64,000 nt of DNA from Ostreococcus lucimarinus (Eukaryota). This document shows, in pieces, positions 40,526 through 56,195 of this stretch. The notes beneath the pieces are model-generated. The model was not told the origin of the DNA. It ran no database searches and saw nothing but the letters and a program-made list of their open reading frames with translations. Position numbers and translations under genes: made by a program. The DNA is taken from assembly GCA_000092065.1 (NCBI GenBank), contig CP000589.1; one strand, written 5' to 3'. Numbering within the stretch: position 1 is the stretch's first letter; each line of letters starts with the position of its first letter.

Positions 40526-41980
40526 CTAAATCAACGAGCCGCCGGTAAATTTTGCCGGTGACATTGGAGGGTTTTGAGATCTAGCGTCGTTCGACGACGA
40601 AGATCCAAAACCGAGATCTTTGGTCAAGGCGGCGAGCGCGTCCAAGGAGTCGGTCGCGAGCGGCGGCTTTCGCGGCGACGAGCCGCCGCTCAGTCGCGGG
40701 GAGGCGCCGGGAGAACCGAAACTGGATAACCCAAATGGATCGGCCGCAGGTTTTGGAGGACTTTGGGGAACTTGCGCAGCGTGTGGATGCATCGCCGAAG
40801 CCTGCGGGGGCGGTGCGAAACCGAATTGATTCGCCGGCGACGGCGCCGCTCGCGGCGCAGGCGCGCCAAACGACGCGAGCGGGTCGGCCCCCATCGCTGG
40901 CTGCGGCGGCGCGTGCGCCTGGTTCGGGGCGTTGAACAAGTTGTCCAAATCGCCCCAACCAGAAGCCACCGGCGCGGCCGCGGGTGCAGCCGCAGGCGTC
41001 GCCGCGGGCGCGCTCAAACCTCCGAGCAAATCGTCGATGCTCGACGTCAGCGCCGGCGCCGCGGACGAGGCGGAGGAGTAATTCACCGCCATCACCGCGT
41101 TCGTCGCGCGAGGTGGCGGCGCGAACGCCATCACACCCGGCGCCGGCGCGACGCTCGGTACGGGAACGTCTCTAAAAACAATCTTTGGCGCCGCGTTCGC
41201 CAACGGCGCGTCGTCTTCGTCGTCGCTCGAATCCGCCTTTTGTCGTCCCGACGCGAACGCCGGCGCCGGCGCGCTCGGCGGCGCCACGGGAGCGCGTGGT
41301 TTCACGTCTTCGTCCGCGCGATTCCACGGCGCGCCGCCAGCGCCACCGCCCGAAGAAATCGACGCCGTCGACCGTCGCTCCGAGTCGCCGCCGAGCGCGC
41401 TCCCTCCCGAAAACGACCCACCCGCGCTCGACGTCGACCCTCTCCGCGCGTGCGTCCGCGCTTCTTCGCTCGACATCCCCGCGTACTTGCCGCGATTTCT
41501 CTCCGCCTTTTCCCTCGCCTCCTCGACCGATCTCGGATCTTCCACCAACGCCTTGATCTTTTCCGCTCGATGTCGCACGTTCACCCCCTCATCCTTCCCT
41601 CGCGCGTCCTTGTACTCGAACCTCAGCGCGCCGTCCATCATTCGCCTTCGCCTGACGTCCTCCGCGATCGCTCGATCGCCGTTCGCGACGAGATACTCGA
41701 CGACGGTGAGCGCCTTGTACGCGCGTCGCCACTCCTCCGGCGCGCTCTTCAAGCGTTTCTCCAGCACCTCGCGCACGACGTCCCACTTCCCATCGCGCGT
41801 GAGCCGCGCGATCGCGCGCAGCTGCTCCCCGTGCGGGCCCCAGGGCTCGGAGTTCGTCGCGTCGCGGACGAGCGCTTCGTCGTCGCCGATGCCTTTCCAT
41901 TGATTGACGCGCTTCTTCGCCGCCTGCGCCACCTCGTCCGGGATCGCGGACTTGATCGTCGTCAGCGCGGCTTTGAACAT
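40526..41980 (-). CDS. ENTH-domain protein (epsin / epsinR-like clathrin adaptor).
   Basis: The N-terminal 'MFKAALTTIKSAIPDEVAQAAKKRVNQWKGIGDDEALVRDATNSEPWGPHGEQLRAIARLT...VVEYLVANG' is an ENTH domain. The tail is long and disordered with DPF / NPxF-like motifs. ATG at 41978-41980; the upstream 246 codons of the ORF are arginine-rich and non-conserved. Confidence 0.75.
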   Translation of the reverse strand: MFKAALTTIKSAIPDEVAQAAKKRVNQWKGIGDDEALVRDATNSEPWGPHGEQLRAIARLTRDGKWDVVREVLEKRLKSAPEEWRRAYKALTVVEYLVANGDRAIAEDVRRRRMMDGALRFEYKDARGKDEGVNVRHRAEKIKALVEDPRSVEEAREKAERNRGKYAGMSSEEARTHARRGSTSSAGGSFSGGSALGGDSERRSTASISSGGGAGGAPWNRADEDVKPRAPVAPPSAPAPAFASGRQKADSSDDEDDAPLANAAPKIVFRDVPVPSVAPAPGVMAFAPPPRATNAVMAVNYSSASSAAPALTSSIDDLLGGLSAPAATPAAAPAAAPVASGWGDLDNLFNAPNQAHAPPQPAMGADPLASFGAPAPRAAPSPANQFGFAPPPQASAMHPHAAQVPQSPPKPAADPFGLSSFGSPGASPRLSGGSSPRKPPLATDSLDALAALTKDLGFGSSSSNDARSQNPPMSPAKFTGGSLI

Positions 41981-42065
41981 CGTCGCCGTCGCGCGCGGCG
42001 CGGCGCGCGACGCGACGGCGCGCGACGCGACGGCGTGTGACGCGACGTCTCTTGCACCGCGCGAC

Positions 42066-42095
42066 GCCAAAACCAAAACCAAAACCAAAACCAAA
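42066..42095. repeat. (CCAAAA)4-5 microsatellite in the promoter / 5' region between the epsin and GTPase genes.
   Basis: 'ccaaaaccaaaaccaaaaccaaaaccaaacac'. Confidence 0.85.
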
Positions 42096-42178
42096 CACGG
42101 AACGCGAAAGCGGGCACGCGTCACTCGGCGACGCGTCGCGCGCCGGACCGGCGACGCGCGCGCGCGCGACGCGTGCCG

Positions 42179-44273
42179 ATGAACGCGTCGACGTGCGTCG
42201 TGTGCGGCGCGACGGGACGCGGGAAGACGACGGTCGTGAACGGATTGGTGCGGGAAACGCTGCGGGAAGAGATTCTTCTCGGAACGGACGACGAGGACGC
42301 GCGCGCGACGGAGCGGGCGCGCGCGGTCGTCGATGAGGTGCGACGAAGGACGACGCGCGACGACGCGAAAAACGCGAATGCGATGGTGCGCGCGCTCGAG
42401 ACGAAGCGCGGCGAGTGACGCGCGCGCGGGACCGATGCGACAGAGCGAGACGACGCGGGCGAGGCGCGATGGAAATCGGCGCGCGGCGAGACGCGAAGGA
42501 CGGACGACGAACGGAGGGGATTGGAGGTGGCGACAGCGCGAAGAAGTGCGAGAAATGATGTCTAGTGATGAGGGGCGACGAGCGATGGAGGCGTGCGTGC
42601 GAAAACAGAATGCGTTGGATGTGATGCCGACGAGCGCGAGGACGGGGTGCCCGATAGCGATTCGACGCGCGACGTTGGACGACGAAGATGAAAAACAGGC
42701 GGCGAACGGCGTGTTCATCGCGCGAGTCGTCGTGCGATACCGAGAGGAGCATGAACTGGAGCAGGCGTTGCTAGATGTGGCGATTCAGTCGCGCACGGCG
42801 GGAGAGTTGGCGGGGAGACTGTGCGCCGGAGGGACGCCGCCAAGAAGAAATCGCGCCGACGAGGACGAGGCGGAGGCGAACGACGGATCGATCGAAGAAC
42901 TCGCGAGCGTGCTCGGTGAAGACCCAAAAGACGTGAAAGCGCGTGTGTTGGAGTGTTACGATCGATGTGAGCCATTTCTTCCAGCGCGCGTTCGAGATTT
43001 GCTCGGACGCGAACGCGTGTACGAAGTCCGAAGCGCTTGCGCCGGCGCCGCACTCACGGCTATTCGTTCTTTTATTTTACGCGTGGCGACGGCGGGTAAG
43101 TGGACGCACTGGGGCATCATAGAAGGTACGGTCGAGGTCGAGCTTCCGTTAGCGTACGACGTCAAGTTCGTGGATACGCCCGGGATTGATGCGTCGCAAT
43201 TCTCTCTCAAGCGATTGCGCCGAGTAATTGGCGCTGAAGCCGAGGAGCGATTCGGGATGTTCATATACGTGTGCGGTAAAGATGCACCGAAAGAGTGGGA
43301 GTGGAGCGCTCTGCATGCAATGGGTACGCTAAAGAAGATCGTCACCGAGGGTCCGCGGCTGTGTTTGTGCTGGCCCGTGGAGCTCGTGGTGAACGCCAAC
43401 GGACGTCCAGATGGCTTTGTCACGAATCTCCAAATCAAAAAGTTCCAGGATCGCACGTTGAAGATGCTGCGATCGGACTCTAATCATTGGCGCGAACGTC
43501 TTGATCAATGTATCGTCGCATCCAAGGTCGATGGCTTGCGCGGTGATTTAAGACGCGGCATGGCGCTGGCGTTTGTTCGGGCGTTTAAGCCCGACGCCTC
43601 GACGATTTTGAAGTATTCCATGTATCAGCTGGCGTTTTCGGTGGAAGAAGAGCTCAAACCATCACCGCCGAGCGATAACGGCAGTGGAGTCTTACCGAGC
43701 ACCGCGGTGGTCGCTGACGCAAAACCTTCGACAGACCCTTGTCCGAAGACCAAGCGAAAGATTGACGAAGAAGCCGCGACGAAAGCGTCGCCACCAAAGA
43801 AACGCCTTAAGAAGCAACCACGCCAGTGTACCATCGCTGATCCATTCGTGTTCAACGAAGACGATGGTCTTTTTGCCGACGAAGACGCCGCAACACCTCC
43901 AATGTTCGGCAAGCACATCGCAAAAACCAAATCAACGCGCTCGCCGCTCGTCGACGCCAACGAAAAGTCTCGCGCGACGGCGGCGGCGCGACGCAAAACC
44001 AAACCGTCGAACACCGCACCGAAGCGACCGCTCGTCTTGACGTCGACGACCGTTTCTCCGCCGAAGTCGAAGCATCGAGGTGCTGAAGCACCGCAGCCGA
44101 AGCTTTCCCCTCAACTCTCCGCGACGCCCGCGTCCAAGCCTGCGCGAAATCGGCCAAAGTTCGTCGTCGCCTCCGTCGACGACGGTCCCACCCCATCCCC
44201 ACCCCCCGCGCGTCCGAAACGCCCGCGCGAATGCACGAAACAACCTTGGTGGGTCGTCCAATCGCATCGATAG
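42179..44273 (+). CDS. Dynamin/GBP-superfamily large GTPase. Proposed model is join(42179..42247,42609..44273): a 23-codon P-loop first exon, a GTGCGG donor, a 361-nt intron and a CAG acceptor.
   Basis: Exon 1 encodes 'MNASTCVVCGATGRGKTTVVNGL' (G1). Exon 2 continues in phase 0 with 'NALDVMPTSARTGCPIAIRRATL', restoring the dynamin-like G1-switch I spacing (compare '[26 protein letters not shown]'). Later 'DVKFVDTPGIDAS' is a G3 (DxxG) motif. The C-terminus is a K/P/S-rich tail. The two pieces are in different frames in the raw ORF track (81-aa and 646-aa ORFs). Confidence 0.5.
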
Positions 44274-44545: not shown

Positions 44546-46909
44546 ATGTCGTCGAGCGAAGGCGCGCGGTCGCGCTCGCCCAAGCGCATCGCGCGCGTAC
44601 ACGTTACCGCAGACGCGCGCGCGCGCGACGCGCGGCAAATGCTCGATCACGCGTGGCGGGAGTGCGAAGGAAAGGCGCGAGCGCGGCGCGCGAGAGCGTC
44701 GGCGAGAGGCGAAGACGAAGCGGACGACGAAAGGATGGAAGATTTGCACGCCATCGGAGACGTCGTGCGTGAATTGTGCGCGGTGGATGATGGGGTGCTG
44801 ATGCGATCGACCCTGGGGTGCATGGATGGGTTTAAGGTGGCGTTGCGCGCGGAGCGAGAGGACGACGACGAGGCGAGGAGAGAAATTTGCGTCGCGGCGT
44901 TGTTTGGATTGAGCAAGCTCGCGACGACGGCGAGGGAACAAGTCATCGGGGGGGATGTGGAAGAAGATGTGGTACTTGAAATGCTTCGCGTGCAGTGTAA
45001 GGCGCCGAATATGCGATTTTCAGAACGCGCTCGGGCGATGTCGACGTACGTCAAGGCGGTGGGCGTTCGGGAAAACTTGACAAACGTCAACGTTCGGACG
45101 CCTCCGGCATCGCCGAAGGATAAGAGTGGTAGAACTATAGGTGGCTTAGCGCGAGCGTTTGCATCGCAACAAGAGATGGCAGATTTCAACACACCAGACG
45201 TGAGCGACGACGAGGGGACAGAGGAGCGCAGGCAATCGATGAGTTCGCTGTGCGCGTCACCGAGTAGAATCTTCTACTCGCCGAAAATTTTGAGCGGAGA
45301 TGGCACGGTCGTTGATGAAGCGATCACACCTCCAGGCACAGTTATATGTCGCATCTGCGAACAGCCTGTCGCCAAACGAACTTTTGCCGGTCACAACGCG
45401 ACGTGCGCTGGATTTCGTCCGTCGTCGCTGGGTTCGAGTGGTTGCGCGTCTGCGCGCACTTCTGCCTCTCTCGCACAAGATGATTCGGAAACTTCAGACC
45501 AGATGTCTATTGATGACTTTCGAATCATAAAACTGATAAGTGGGGGCGCGTACGGGCGAGTCTTCTTGGCGCAGAAACGCGCGACGGGCGATTTGTTCGC
45601 CGTCAAGGCGTTGCGAAAGCGCGATCTCGTGTACAAGAACATGATGGATCAAGTCGTCGCCGAACGTGATGCCCTGATAGCAGCTGCGAATCCGTTCACA
45701 ATCAAATTGTACTACTCATTCACCTCTGCGAGGCACGTTTATCTCGTCACCGAATACGCAAACGGTGGCGACTTGTACAGTCTGTTGACGCAGCTCGGTC
45801 GATTGAGCGAAGAGCACGCTCGCCAGTACTGTGCCGAGATCGCACTCGCGCTCGAGTACGTGCACTCGAAAGGAATTACGCACCGAGATTTGAAGCCGGG
45901 TAATTGTCTCATTGCGTCGGATGGGCACATCAAACTTGCTGATTTTGGTTTATCGCGAATCGACCGAGACGCCGGGGACGCAGCGGGAAGCGGTAGCAAC
46001 TCGCCCAGCCCTTACAGTGGCACGGGATCGCCCATGTCGCCGAGCAGTGGAGCCGCTTCGATCCGAATCCCAACGCAAGATCCCATGACGACGAATAGTC
46101 CGATACATAGAATGACTCTAGCCGCAAACGCGAGACAGAGCCCAACTCAGAGCCCGTCGCGAAAGGTGCATCGACGCTCGGCGTCAAGACACGCTTCTGG
46201 AGCTAAGGGTACTCCAGATTACTTGGCACCTGAAATTCTTTTATGCGAACCGTGCGGCGAGGGTGTGGATTGGTGGGCGTTAGGAGTGATGGCGTACGAA
46301 ATGCTCGTGGGAGTTCCTCCGTTCAATGCGTCGACGCCGTTGGCGATTTTCGCAAGAATCATCAACGGCAAAGTGGAATGGCCAGGAAGTGGCGCCGCGC
46401 TGAGTGACGAGTCTAAAGATTTTGTTAACGCTCTACTCGTGCACGATGTAGAAGCGCGTCTGGGCTCGAACGACGATGCAAATGATATCAAGGCTCATCC
46501 TTGGTTTGCAGACGTCACTTGGGAACACGTCTACGACAAGAGCGCTGCGAGCGTGTTCGTGCCAAAGCCCGAAAGTCGACAAGATACGTCGTACTTCGTT
46601 CCCGCGTCGGATTTAAGCTTAGGTGTGGAGTATCCAGTCGGAGAGCGAAGAATGAGTGAATCTCACGCAAGTGAAGACAGCTCGAGCATGAAGGAGGACG
46701 TAGTCATTCCTGTCCCCACGCCAGAGGAAGTGGATGAAATCGAAGATTGCGACGAGGAAAAGTTACGGGCATTCACGTATAAGAACCTCGCCGAACTGGC
46801 GATGCGAAACATGAGGGTTTCCGGAGGGTCTGTCACACACTCAGCCGCCCAAACGAGCGGACTTCCTCGTCGAGGCTCGGTTGGCAAAGACTTAGCGCAC
46901 CAAAATTGA
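44546..46909 (+). CDS. AGC-family Ser/Thr protein kinase, MAST / Rim15 / IREH-like, with a large activation-loop insert.
   Basis: 'ISGGAYGRVFLAQK', 'FAVKAL', '[11 protein letters not shown]', 'DFGLSRI', then a ~85-aa insert, then 'GTPDYLAPEILL' and the AGC C-terminal extension '...HPWFADVTWEHVYDKSAASVFVPKPESRQDTSYF'. ATG at 44546. Confidence 0.8.
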   Translation: MSSSEGARSRSPKRIARVHVTADARARDARQMLDHAWRECEGKARARRARASARGEDEADDERMEDLHAIGDVVRELCAVDDGVLMRSTLGCMDGFKVALRAEREDDDEARREICVAALFGLSKLATTAREQVIGGDVEEDVVLEMLRVQCKAPNMRFSERARAMSTYVKAVGVRENLTNVNVRTPPASPKDKSGRTIGGLARAFASQQEMADFNTPDVSDDEGTEERRQSMSSLCASPSRIFYSPKILSGDGTVVDEAITPPGTVICRICEQPVAKRTFAGHNATCAGFRPSSLGSSGCASARTSASLAQDDSETSDQMSIDDFRIIKLISGGAYGRVFLAQKRATGDLFAVKALRKRDLVYKNMMDQVVAERDALIAAANPFTIKLYYSFTSARHVYLVTEYANGGDLYSLLTQLGRLSEEHARQYCAEIALALEYVHSKGITHRDLKPGNCLIASDGHIKLADFGLSRIDRDAGDAAGSGSNSPSPYSGTGSPMSPSSGAASIRIPTQDPMTTNSPIHRMTLAANARQSPTQSPSRKVHRRSASRHASGAKGTPDYLAPEILLCEPCGEGVDWWALGVMAYEMLVGVPPFNASTPLAIFARIINGKVEWPGSGAALSDESKDFVNALLVHDVEARLGSNDDANDIKAHPWFADVTWEHVYDKSAASVFVPKPESRQDTSYFVPASDLSLGVEYPVGERRMSESHASEDSSSMKEDVVIPVPTPEEVDEIEDCDEEKLRAFTYKNLAELAMRNMRVSGGSVTHSAAQTSGLPRRGSVGKDLAHQN

Positions 46910-55285: not shown

Positions 55286-55765
55286 ATGTCTGCCTTCACC
55301 ACCTCCTTCACCGGCGTTCGCGTCGTCTCCAAGACCACGGTCGCGAAGAAGACCGTCTCCACCAAGGCGTGCGCGTCCATGGACTTCAAGAAGGTGCGTC
55401 GCGAATTCGCACGCGCGCCGAATTCGCGCCCTCGATCGCCGTTCGCGGGCGACGCGCGGATCGATCCGGCGTCGCGAACGCGCCGGTCGAGCGCGCGTCG
55501 TCGCGCGTCTGCGCGCGCGCGTCCGCGATCGAGAATCTTCGAATTTCGCCTCGCGCGCGCGACGGACGCGCGCGCGACGAACGCGATCGCGCGCGCGACC
55601 GACGACGCGTCGATCGCCGACTGACGATGACGCGACCTAATTTCCGACGCGCGCAGGCTGCGGTCGTCGCCGCGACGACGCTCGCGATGTCCTCCCCGGC
55701 GTTCGCGGCGACCATCAAGCTCGGCGGTGATAACGGCGAGCTCGGTTTCTACGTGCGTGACCCGA

Positions 55766-55801
<36 letters not shown>

Positions 55802-56195
55802 CGCGACGGACCCCCCCGAGCGAACCTCTAGATACGGTTAGCGCTCGACGACCAATCCTGACTCGAGGGGACCCGGCGCGGGTGGATGACGAGGACGACG
55901 AACGAGCGCGAAGACTGACGGACGCGCGCGATTTCCCGATGAATAGCCGCCGTCCATCACGGTCAAGGCTGGTGAAACGATTGAATTCGTCAACAACAAG
56001 GCGTTCCCGCACAACGTCGTCTTCGACGAAGACAACGTGCCGGCGGGCGTCAACGTCGACGCCATCTCGCACGAAGACTACTTGAACGGCCCGGGCGAGA
56101 AGGTGACGAACAAGTTCGACACCCCGGGTACGTACGGCTACTACTGCGAACCGCACCAAGGTGCGGGCATGGCGGGTAAGATCATCGTCCAATAA
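55286..56195 (+). CDS. PETE: Plastocyanin precursor, modelled as join(55286..55393,55657..55752,55947..56195). It has three exons and two introns with GTGCGT donors.
   Basis: Exon 1 is a stromal transit peptide '[36 protein letters not shown]'. Exon 2 is the lumen-transfer domain plus mature start '...[17 protein letters not shown]|[15 protein letters not shown]'. Exon 3 is '[82 protein letters not shown]'. This is almost identical in pattern to Chlamydomonas plastocyanin, including the copper ligands in H37 (PHN) and the C-x-x-H-x-x-M triad. Confidence 0.9.
55394..55656 (+). other. Plastocyanin intron 1 (GTGCGT ... cgcgcAG).
   Basis: It is required to join the transit-peptide exon to the hydrophobic lumen-targeting exon in phase 0. 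Confidence 0.7.
55753..55946 (+). other. Plastocyanin intron 2 (GTGCGT ... gaatAG). It contains a (GACGCG)5 repeat.
   Basis: It is required to join 'GELGFY' to '[10 protein letters not shown]', which is collinear with the Chlamydomonas mature protein. Confidence 0.75.

Follow-up and report, generated by a model that had tools for sequence, protein, structure and literature searches.

Do two neighbouring open reading frames of Ostreococcus lucimarinus, one with a P-loop and the other with a large body from which the P-loop is absent, make up a single gene, and, if so, where is the transcript spliced? The window, by which we mean the whole stretch of 64,000 nucleotides of contig CP000589.1 that was analysed, does contain both frames named in a first-pass annotation: an 81-aa ORF at 42173-42418 (+), which includes the Walker A motif within 'CGATGRGKTT', and, 3' of it and in a different frame, a 646-aa ORF at 42333-44273 (+), which includes DVKFVDTPGIDAS with its DTPG. 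The annotation had taken the two for exons of one gene separated by a GTGCG-type spliceosomal intron, and a comparison of seven loci agrees with this; both of its splice coordinates, on the other hand, are wrong, as exon 1 has 53 codons and not 23, the intron 106 nt and not 361, and the product 662 aa and not 577. We put at roughly 0.85 the probability of the reading defended here, namely one gene with a 106-nt intron and a product of 662 aa, in which a G domain of the dynamin superfamily at the N-terminus is followed by a basic disordered tail. The features are collected in Table 1.

Table 1. Parts of the gene and motifs of its predicted product, in window positions
Feature	Positions	Strand	Residues	Description
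Exon 1	42179-42337	+		53 codons, MNASTCVVCGATGRGKTTVVNGLVRETLREEILLGTDDEDARATERARAVVDE; starts at the first ATG in the 81-aa ORF; strand beta1, P-loop and helix alpha1
Walker A / G1	42206-42232	+	10-18	GATGRGKTT
Intron	42338-42443	+		spliceosomal, 106 nt, phase 0; GAG/GTGCGA...ACAG/AGC
Exon 2	42444-44273	+		609 codons and stop TAG (44271-44273), same frame as the 646-aa ORF; remaining G domain, helical region, disordered basic tail
Exon 2 segment once put in the intron	42444-42608	+	54-108	SETTRARR...DWRWRQREEVREMMSSDEGRRAMEACVRKQ
Switch-I-like element	42615-42668	+	111-128	LDVMPTSARTGCPIAIRR; 'LP...T', then beta-strand
G3 / Walker B-like	43170-43190	+	296-302	VDTPGID; DTPG is residues 297-300
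G4-position motif	43359-43382	+	359-366	LCLCWPVE; stands in for [NT]KxD
Basic tail	43662-44270	+		about 200 residues; Pro, Ala, Lys and Ser abundant; pI 10.3
Tail motif	43791-43865	+		PPKKRLKKQPRQCTIADPFVFNEDD
Tail motif	43893-43913	+		TPPMFGK
Tail motif	44106-44141	+		SPQLSATPASKP
Tail motif	44211-44252	+		RPKRPRECTKQPWW

The boundaries were fixed by comparing orthologs and not by the spacing of motifs. The comparison set consists of seven syntenic loci, where an ENTH gene (on the minus strand), this gene and a Ser/Thr kinase follow one another. At all seven a P-loop ORF lies upstream and ends in GAG/GTGCG, the acceptor CAG/A(C/G)(C/G)GAGACG is common to them, and the introns measure 106, 107, 80, 102, 122, 120 and 116 nt, i.e. 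1, 2, 2, 0, 2, 0 and 2 modulo 3, all three residues occurring. Read-through meets an in-frame stop in 7/7 introns and splicing restores a single ORF of 656-665 aa, again in 7/7. Across 42337/42444 the predicted cDNA of the window gene is ...GTCGTCGATGAG/AGCGAGACGACG..., and protein searches, including those with the corrected N-terminus, returned no product from this clade that spans this junction. Compared with a 95%-identical relative (L010), the intron has diverged by 18.9% and contains a frame-breaking 1-nt indel, while the exons have diverged by 2.6-4.6%; exon 1, at 2.6%, has a sole gap, of 6 nt and in frame, and the changes in exon 2 are distributed over the codon positions as 18/13/46, the third position dominating. 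The beginning of exon 2, 'SETTRARR', aligns with 'TETLRAARR' and 'SETIRARS', and in distant relatives with 'ETETLTRA' and 'ERETLTRS'.

An exhaustive search with an HMM profile of the body only led to these distant relatives (P0077, P0080, P0081, P0083, P0084, P0087 and P0090). In the predicted proteins of all seven a single ORF joins the P-loop, an E-x-E-T-L-x-R junction motif and the body, and for P0077 and P0080 the uninterrupted ORF was verified on their own contigs. One ortholog, L002, has lost G1 and G3 together, which is what one expects if a single nucleotide site uses both exons. These comparative sequence data show the gene structure, with exon 1 and the body as a single unit. A metagenome scaffold (L013) matches window positions 42171-42336 at 100% identity and is flanked by unrelated DNA; we rejected it as transcript-like support for the exon-1 boundary, as it is a METAG scaffold whose break falls 1 base short of the exon end.

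The intron itself is of the ordinary Ostreococcus type and unremarkable. Its donor, GTGCGA at 42337/42338, agrees with the consensus GTGCGTG published for Ostreococcus (PMC2483917), and donors of the same GTGCG type are used by the plastocyanin gene of the window, as the first-pass annotation had remarked (GTGCGT, introns 55394-55656 and 55753-55946). The candidate branch site is AGTGAC at 42414-42419, its A at 42418 lying 25 nt upstream of the 3' splice site (ACAG). It differs from the consensus ACTGAC, which is present in 87% of the confirmed O. lucimarinus introns outside chromosome 2 (PMC2483917). The TGAC core is found in all introns compared, within CTGAC in L001, L004 and L007 and within ATGAC or TTGAC in L008 and L002. 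The window has 13 AGGTGCG sites where 8.7 would be expected, an excess that is not significant; this means that the motif alone is no evidence for splicing. By its donor, the restored frame and its free interior, the intron would belong to the Ostreococcus 'non-chromosome-2' U2-type class. The locus would then be one protein-coding gene on the + strand, broken by this single intron, whose exon 1 supplies strand beta1, the P-loop and helix alpha1 and whose exon 2 supplies the remainder.

Could splicing be absent, with the P-loop ORF a relic or a separate upstream ORF and the ATG pair at 42555 as the start of the gene? All database models begin at or near the corresponding M-M-S-S, a conserved Met, and so does the O. 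tauri reference annotation (XP_003081401.2). However, the frame 5' of this Met is conserved as protein (DWRxRQREE..., SETxRA...) in all orthologs, the P-loop ORF is kept across species that are only ~50% identical, the distant relatives join P-loop and body in one ORF, and a G domain deprived of exon 1 would miss strand beta1 and the P-loop, both confidently packed in the AF2 model described below. Moreover, most starts in the databases were set by gene callers unable to model introns, with prokaryote-style calls in metagenomes, and the metagenome-derived models examined do begin downstream of the first exon. We consider this alternative, which the first-pass annotation had itself named, very unlikely. 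The two public O. tauri models, ostta09g04185 / XP_003081401.2 (570 aa) and OUS48735.1 (610 aa), are orthologs of the window gene in the same synteny, with ~51% identity to its protein, and cluster with P0007, encoded at L007; both are called 'hypothetical protein', and the P-loop is absent from both. XP_003081401.2 begins MSSD..., downstream of the first exon, while OUS48735.1 begins MTKC-SETIRARSDG..., four residues upstream of the proposed start of exon 2; the codons for 'MTKC' were looked for in L007 and were not located. A literature search on ostta09g04185 found no papers.

The splice proposed at first, which joins a micro-exon of 23 codons, its end at 42247, over a 361-nt intron (42248-42608) to the body at 42609, is phase-compatible, has a GTGCGG donor, and does give a 577-aa product with canonical G1-to-switch-I spacing. 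On Pfam Dynamin_N this artificial product scores 26 bits (E 1.1e-5, residues 7-219), slightly above the corrected product; the score is higher because the insertion has been removed, so that the profile spans G1 to G3. Still, the comparison of orthologous loci already contradicts the junction 42247/42609, and supports 42337/42444. The donor GT is missing in 4/7 loci (L001, L004, L007 and L008, with ATC, ATC, ATT and GTT after the conserved L codon). The supposed intron holds residues 24-108, i.e. 85 residues that are conserved in the orthologs and found at the same position in the distant relatives, and the AF2 model folds the majority of them with confidence. Its part from 42444 to 42608 is kept as protein in both groups and has diverged from L010 by 4.2%, as has the remaining exon, against 18.9% in the true intron, and helices are predicted within it at residues 80-107 with a pLDDT of ~90. 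No TGAC branch motif lies closer than 190 nt to the 3' splice site of this model; outside chromosome 2, 87%-93% of the confirmed introns of Ostreococcus contain one (PMC2483917). The excised segment had been described as arginine-rich junk with an in-frame stop: the stop exists (TGA, 42416-42418), but the segment is mostly conserved coding sequence. In the same way, 'DVMPTSARTGC' can plausibly be read as the switch-I 'LP..G...T', as was proposed, but the canonical spacing is an artefact, which results from the deletion of a lineage-specific insertion by the proposed splice. Hence, we hold this model to be extremely improbable.

A pseudogene or an assembly frameshift, i.e. a formerly continuous ORF with an indel and a stop between P-loop and body, has an almost negligible probability: the distant relatives do appear continuous at the junction, two of them as verified on contigs, which makes an ancestral uninterrupted state plausible, but the same interruption is found with canonical GTGCG...CAG boundaries in seven independent assemblies from different species, its boundaries are fixed and its length is free to vary, and purifying selection persists on both flanks, as the codon positions of exon 2 illustrate.

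What protein does the gene with the 106-nt intron encode? We built an AF2 model of the corrected product on a shallow alignment of 17 sequences, distant relatives included. It reaches a pLDDT of 79.3 and a pTM of 0.82, and the residues of exon 1 are confidently packed (pLDDT 82-91 over residues 1-30); an earlier model, built on an 8-row alignment of homologs without exon 1, had a pLDDT of 45 and was unusable. In the region of residues 54-108 the model has a strand (51-59) and two helices (80-93 and 95-107) with a pLDDT of ~81-93, and after the G domain it has helices at 381-397, 402-413 and 446-457, a long stalk being absent. The best Foldseek matches are SynDLP (E 1.9e-5), BDLP and MFN1. The model thus points to a large G-domain fold, more like that of dynamin-like proteins than that of small or translational GTPases, and this predicted structure would place the fold in the dynamin superfamily, closest to SynDLP, the mitofusins and the bacterial dynamin-like proteins. 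Among Pfam families, Dynamin_N (PF00350) is the only one that weakly matches the G1 and G3 regions together, in 6/7 orthologs; the corrected product scores 20 bits, under the 27-bit gathering threshold, the best ortholog has an E of 9.4e-5 and the distant relatives score 16.7-25.9 bits. PDB sequence searches with the 577-aa product and two family profiles gave generic P-loop matches (ABC, septin, Der, IRG) or spurious L5 matches and no classification; the NCBIfam search gave nothing meaningful, and a protein search with the family profile returned just the close orthologs already known. Two signatures of the dynamin superfamily, G1 (GATGRGKT, residues 10-17) and G3 (DTPG), are present, and the G4 signature [NT]KxD is absent. 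The G domain would carry a lineage-specific insertion of ~85 residues from alpha1 to switch I and a second, long one of ~180 residues from G2 to G3. The long G2-G3 interval of the body had been noticed on first inspection, as had its K/P/S-rich tail, which is basic and also rich in Ala.

The motifs are not kept to the same extent throughout the family. GxxGxGK[ST]T is kept in 6/7 orthologs and in P0077, P0080, P0081, P0083, P0084, P0087, P0090 and P0092, and is degenerate in L002 (SGRARGTHR). At switch I the family alignment gives '[VI]LP....T....V.VR', which is 'DILPTGSHTNGLTALV' in P0092; we take this element to resemble the 'LPxGxGxxT' motif of dynamin and mitofusin. D-x-P-G is kept in most members and lost in L002 (NTPT), P0072 (KAPA) and P0071 (DLPE). 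LCLCWPVE probably occupies the G4 position, judging by the order of strands in the model (strand 358-364). Its C-L-C-W-P is invariant in 7/7 orthologs, the distant relatives have 'L.WPLD' or 'FYPID', and from [NT]KxD just the final acidic residue remains in the family consensus L-x-W-P-[LVM]-[DE]. Since NKxD is replaced by WP-x-D/E, the base specificity is uncertain. Both G1 and G3 have decayed in L002, and G3 has decayed in P0071 and P0072, for which the comparison covered the body. The protein can thus evidently persist as a pseudo-enzyme, and the loss of G1 and G3 in some relatives shows that not every member of the family needs to hydrolyse nucleotide. The relatives without catalytic motifs form a natural series for the role of a G domain after hydrolysis has been lost.

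By resemblance to these families, the protein would bind nucleotide through G1 and G3, and it probably acts by nucleotide-dependent dimerisation of its G domain, as dynamin-like proteins do. The tail, which contains an NLS-like KKRLKK and several S/T-P sites, may mediate the binding of a partner or nuclear targeting. Tail motifs of the same type occur in the distant relatives (NPFAFESPS, RRKPLLDIS and a C-terminal WW..[FY][ST]WE). One can imagine that the family forms a hitherto unrecognised branch of the dynamin superfamily, nuclear or associated with chromatin, where WP-x-D/E shifts the nucleotide specificity, catalytic decay has been repeated and the tail targets chromatin and not membranes; we find this decidedly unlikely. 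The chromatin reading leans on the tail motifs, that is on the NLS-like KKRxKK, CTIxDPFAF, TPPxFGK and the terminal basic-PxWW. The last bears a superficial resemblance to a nucleosome-docking motif of the CENP-C type. A Pfam scan of six C-terminal tails, with E up to 10, found no CENP-C family match; a CENP-C-like identity of the C-terminal basic and P-x-W-W motif is kept as a low-probability lead. The members seen so far come for the most part from green picoalgae that seem to be related to Ostreococcus. P0092 is one larger relative.

Re-mapping one intron suggests, with the help of the model, that a family of 'hypothetical proteins' without domain assignment consists of P-loop NTPases with a dynamin-like fold. 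Beyond the correction of a gene model, this would add to the dynamin superfamily a very divergent, uncharacterised lineage whose G4 is non-canonical, whose insertions are large and whose disordered tail is rich in motifs. It also illustrates that a plausible splice 'restoring canonical spacing' can mislead.

Finally, the closest known systems are SynDLP, BDLP, Campylobacter DynA/B, IniA, MFN1/2 and Fzo1, and we also count among them the classical dynamins, Mx, OPA1/Mgm1 and the EHD ATPases. Compared with the first six, the window protein, at 20 bits, misses the 27-bit threshold of Pfam Dynamin_N. Structural alignment with bacterial dynamin-like proteins and mitofusins gives 13-17% identity, and, in contrast to these, the window protein has ~85 extra residues between alpha1 and switch I, a conserved WP-x-[DE] in place of the G4 motif [NT]KxD, no evident transmembrane segment, paddle or long stalk/GED, and a C-terminus formed by a disordered, basic tail, 200 residues long, that carries short linear motifs.

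Both ORFs reported by the first-pass annotation in 42173-44273 (+), one with a P-loop and one without it in another frame, are present, and the proposed junction (42247|42248 to 42608|42609) is phase-compatible and gives a product of 577 aa; the raw observation was therefore correct. The annotation was also right in kind, as it described a split gene with a GTGCG intron encoding a dynamin-like protein. Its two splice coordinates were both wrong, other sites being conserved among orthologous loci, and so were its exon size and product length (see the table for the corrected structure).

A protein search with the 577-aa query recovered orthologs at 38-54% identity and one relative at 95%. Ostreococcus tauri ostta09g04185, for which no literature was found, falls in one ortholog cluster with P0007, the protein of locus L007; accordingly, the window belongs to a green picoalga of Ostreococcus type. 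All fetched orthologous contigs share the order ENTH-domain gene (minus strand), studied gene, Ser/Thr kinase. An upstream P-loop ORF, in a frame differing from that of the body, exists in every locus with enough upstream DNA, with an intact P-loop at all but one of the seven. The residues E-V-R conserved in this ORF are, in the DNA, a splice donor GAG|GTGCG, while the acceptor CAG|A(C/G)(C/G)GAGACG, found at every locus, opens a conserved peptide [ST]-E-T-. Splicing at these sites yields a single ORF of 656-665 aa in 7/7 loci. Sequence comparison shows one gene with one intron; the exon carrying the P-loop forms a unit with the body, and the sequence around the junction is itself conserved.

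Features of the locus, its surroundings and the plastocyanin gene
Feature	Coordinates	Strand	Remarks
81-aa ORF	42173-42418	+	contains CVVCGATGRGKTTVVNGL
646-aa ORF	42333-44273	+	contains DVKFVDTPGIDAS; no P-loop; frame differs from 81-aa ORF
Exon 1	42179-42337	+	conserved donor GAG|GTGCG
Intron	42338-42443	+	donor and acceptor conserved in seven loci
Exon 2	42444-44273	+	conserved acceptor; spliced product 662 aa
Neighbouring gene	40526-41993	-
Neighbouring gene	44546-46909	+
(CCAAAA)n microsatellite	42068-42097		~5 units
Tandem GCGCGACGCGACGGC copies	42005-42050
Plastocyanin gene	55286-56195	+	three phase-0 exons: 55286-55393, 55657-55752, 55947-56195
Plastocyanin introns	55394-55656 (263 nt), 55753-55946 (194 nt)	+	GTGCGT donors, CTGAC branch sites

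The intron lengths in the seven loci (106, 107, 80, 102, 122, 120 and 116 nt) leave 1, 2, 2, 0, 2, 0 and 2 modulo 3, and therefore the two exons stand in different relative frames across species; reading through any of the seven introns meets an in-frame stop. Compared with locus L010 of the 95%-identical relative, exon 1 diverges by 2.6%, its sole gap being an in-frame 6 nt, whereas the intron diverges by 18.9% and carries a 1-nt indel. The donor GTGCGA matches the GTGCGT of both plastocyanin introns, whose GTGCG-type donors had been correctly noted, and fits the atypical consensus GTGCGTG of Ostreococcus introns outside chromosome 2 (PMC2483917). The branch candidate AGTGAC, 25 nt before the acceptor, has the TGAC core and departs from the consensus ACTGAC, a small point against. 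This is an ordinary Ostreococcus intron. The plastocyanin introns are useful as an internal reference for the splice signals of this genome, whose G+C content is 62.7% in the window.

The 361-nt intron first proposed, 42248-42608, was rejected. Four orthologs have no GT where its donor should align, the 190 nt before its acceptor contain no TGAC motif, and its part 42444-42608 diverges from L010 by only 4.2%, the rest of exon 2 diverging by 4.6% with third-position changes predominating. The conserved M[MIV]SS[DE]xGRRA..C..Q..DALP which begins all orthologous proteins recovered corresponds to window 42555-42608, inside that segment. Strand 51-59 and helices 80-93 and 95-107 of the AF2 model (pLDDT ~81-93) also fall in it.

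An exhaustive HMM search with a profile built from the body only recovered distant relatives (P0077, P0080, P0081, P0083, P0084, P0087 and P0090; E 1e-17 to 1e-4), seven predicted proteins with P-loop, junction and body in one ORF, as in P0077 (...VVVVTGARGSGKTTLVNRLV...SSRATETETLTRA...CRTPEGRRAFAAVEAQ...). Their E-x-E-T-L-x-R aligns exactly over the exon junction, which reads ...VVDE|SETTRARR in the window. On the contigs of two relatives the ORF is single and uninterrupted (L011 3001-5136, on a 1.17-Mb contig, and L012 3001-4617). In P0088, a 153-aa ORF from a 112-kb ENA contig of a close relative, the intron is in frame without a stop and is therefore taken to be of 111 nt; its retention in that strain would add 37 residues and not truncate the protein. 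P0092 (1519 aa) holds the same G-domain family at residues ~470-920 of a much larger protein. Its switch I, DILPTGSHTNGLTA, is closer to the canonical form and its G4 position reads SSLD, suggesting a family not confined to picoalgae.

Gene order is strongly conserved in the window and in every Ostreococcus-type contig retrieved, among them L001, L002, L004 and L007 (PfkB kinase, ENTH, studied gene, Ser/Thr kinase, GNAT acetyltransferase, PH/WW protein); in L011 and L012 a MoCF_biosynth/DUF1244 gene lies upstream instead. The two repeats of the table sit in the ~185-bp divergent intergenic region between the ENTH gene start (minus strand, ~41993) and the ATG at 42179. Positions 140-305 of L013, a 702-nt metagenome scaffold, equal window 42171-42336 at 100% identity, nearly exactly exon 1, the right-hand break falling 1 nt short of its end. 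Unrelated DNA flanks both sides; the 3' flank codes for the zinc finger at the C-terminus of an OTU1-like protein, to which the called ORF P0094 fuses the exon-1 piece. This chimeric-looking scaffold is probably an assembly artefact.

Neither of two public O. tauri models examined (XP_003081401.2, starting MSSD..., and OUS48735.1, starting MTKC-SETIRA...) contains a P-loop, and thus the corrected structure is a real annotation improvement. This sound gene-model correction uncovers an uncharacterised dynamin-like family; we see no surprising mechanism in the gene.

By sequence alone the protein is unclassified. NCBIfam gave no meaningful match and PDB sequence profile searches gave generic P-loop matches only. 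Pfam Dynamin_N, the only family weakly touching both G1 and G3, stayed under its 27-bit cutoff: the check suggested for the 577-aa product did touch it, at 26 bits for this artificially shortened sequence, and the corrected product scored 20 bits. An AF2 model built on 8 sequences could not be used (pLDDT 45); with 17 sequences, including distant relatives, pLDDT reached 79.3 and pTM 0.82, and the part encoded by exon 1 (strand 4-11, P-loop, helix 16-27) has pLDDT 82-91. Structure comparison ranked the SynDLP minimal GTPase domain first (16.7, 266 residues aligned), followed by Mitofusin-2 and Fzo1 (15.5 each), a Campylobacter dynamin-like protein (14.5), IniA (13.5), OPA1 (12.9), and MxB and EHD4 (11.9); non-dynamin GTPases scored at most 10.9 (Ski7), most of them at most 10. 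Foldseek agreed (SynDLP E 1.9e-5, BDLP 1.7e-3, MFN1 8e-3). A dynamin-type G-domain fold is thus shown on the predicted structure only.

G1 is GATGRGKT and G3 is DTPG. A switch-I-like LDVMPTSARTGC (family pattern [VI]LP....T) precedes a strand, ~85 residues are inserted between helix alpha1 and switch I, and ~180 separate switch I from G3. The G4 position holds an invariant CLCWP[VML][ED] instead of [NT]KxD, and L.WPLD in distant relatives. The final ~200 residues are basic (pI 10.3) and Pro-, Ala-, Lys- and Ser-rich, with conserved motifs PPKKRxKKxPRxCTIxDPFAFxEDD, TPPxFGK, SPxLSATPxSK and a terminal basic run followed by PxWW. At L002 both G1 (SGRARGTHR) and G3 (NTPT) are degenerate, and G3 is lost too in P0071 and P0072, the WP and tail motifs being kept despite this decay. 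In the sub-lineage formed by L002 3699-3875 with P0009, P0071 and P0072, the P-loop lysine is gone, as are Asp and Gly of G3, and the intron, CLCWP and tail motifs remain; this resembles the evolution of a pseudo-enzyme inside the family.

The protein would bind nucleotide via G1 and G3, with a base specificity made uncertain by the altered G4, and its G domains may dimerise in a nucleotide-dependent manner, by analogy with dynamin-like proteins. The tail could serve targeting, possibly nuclear, in view of an NLS-like cluster of basic residues and eight S/T-P sites. Lineages devoid of G1 and G3 would have a pseudo-enzyme. Its predicted fold resembles that of a mitofusin/BDLP-class G domain, and by analogy the protein may work alike. 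We describe it as a divergent dynamin-like variant and not as a member of the dynamin family, because it falls short of the Pfam threshold, departs from the family at G4, and shows no evident stalk, GED or membrane-binding module of the usual kind.
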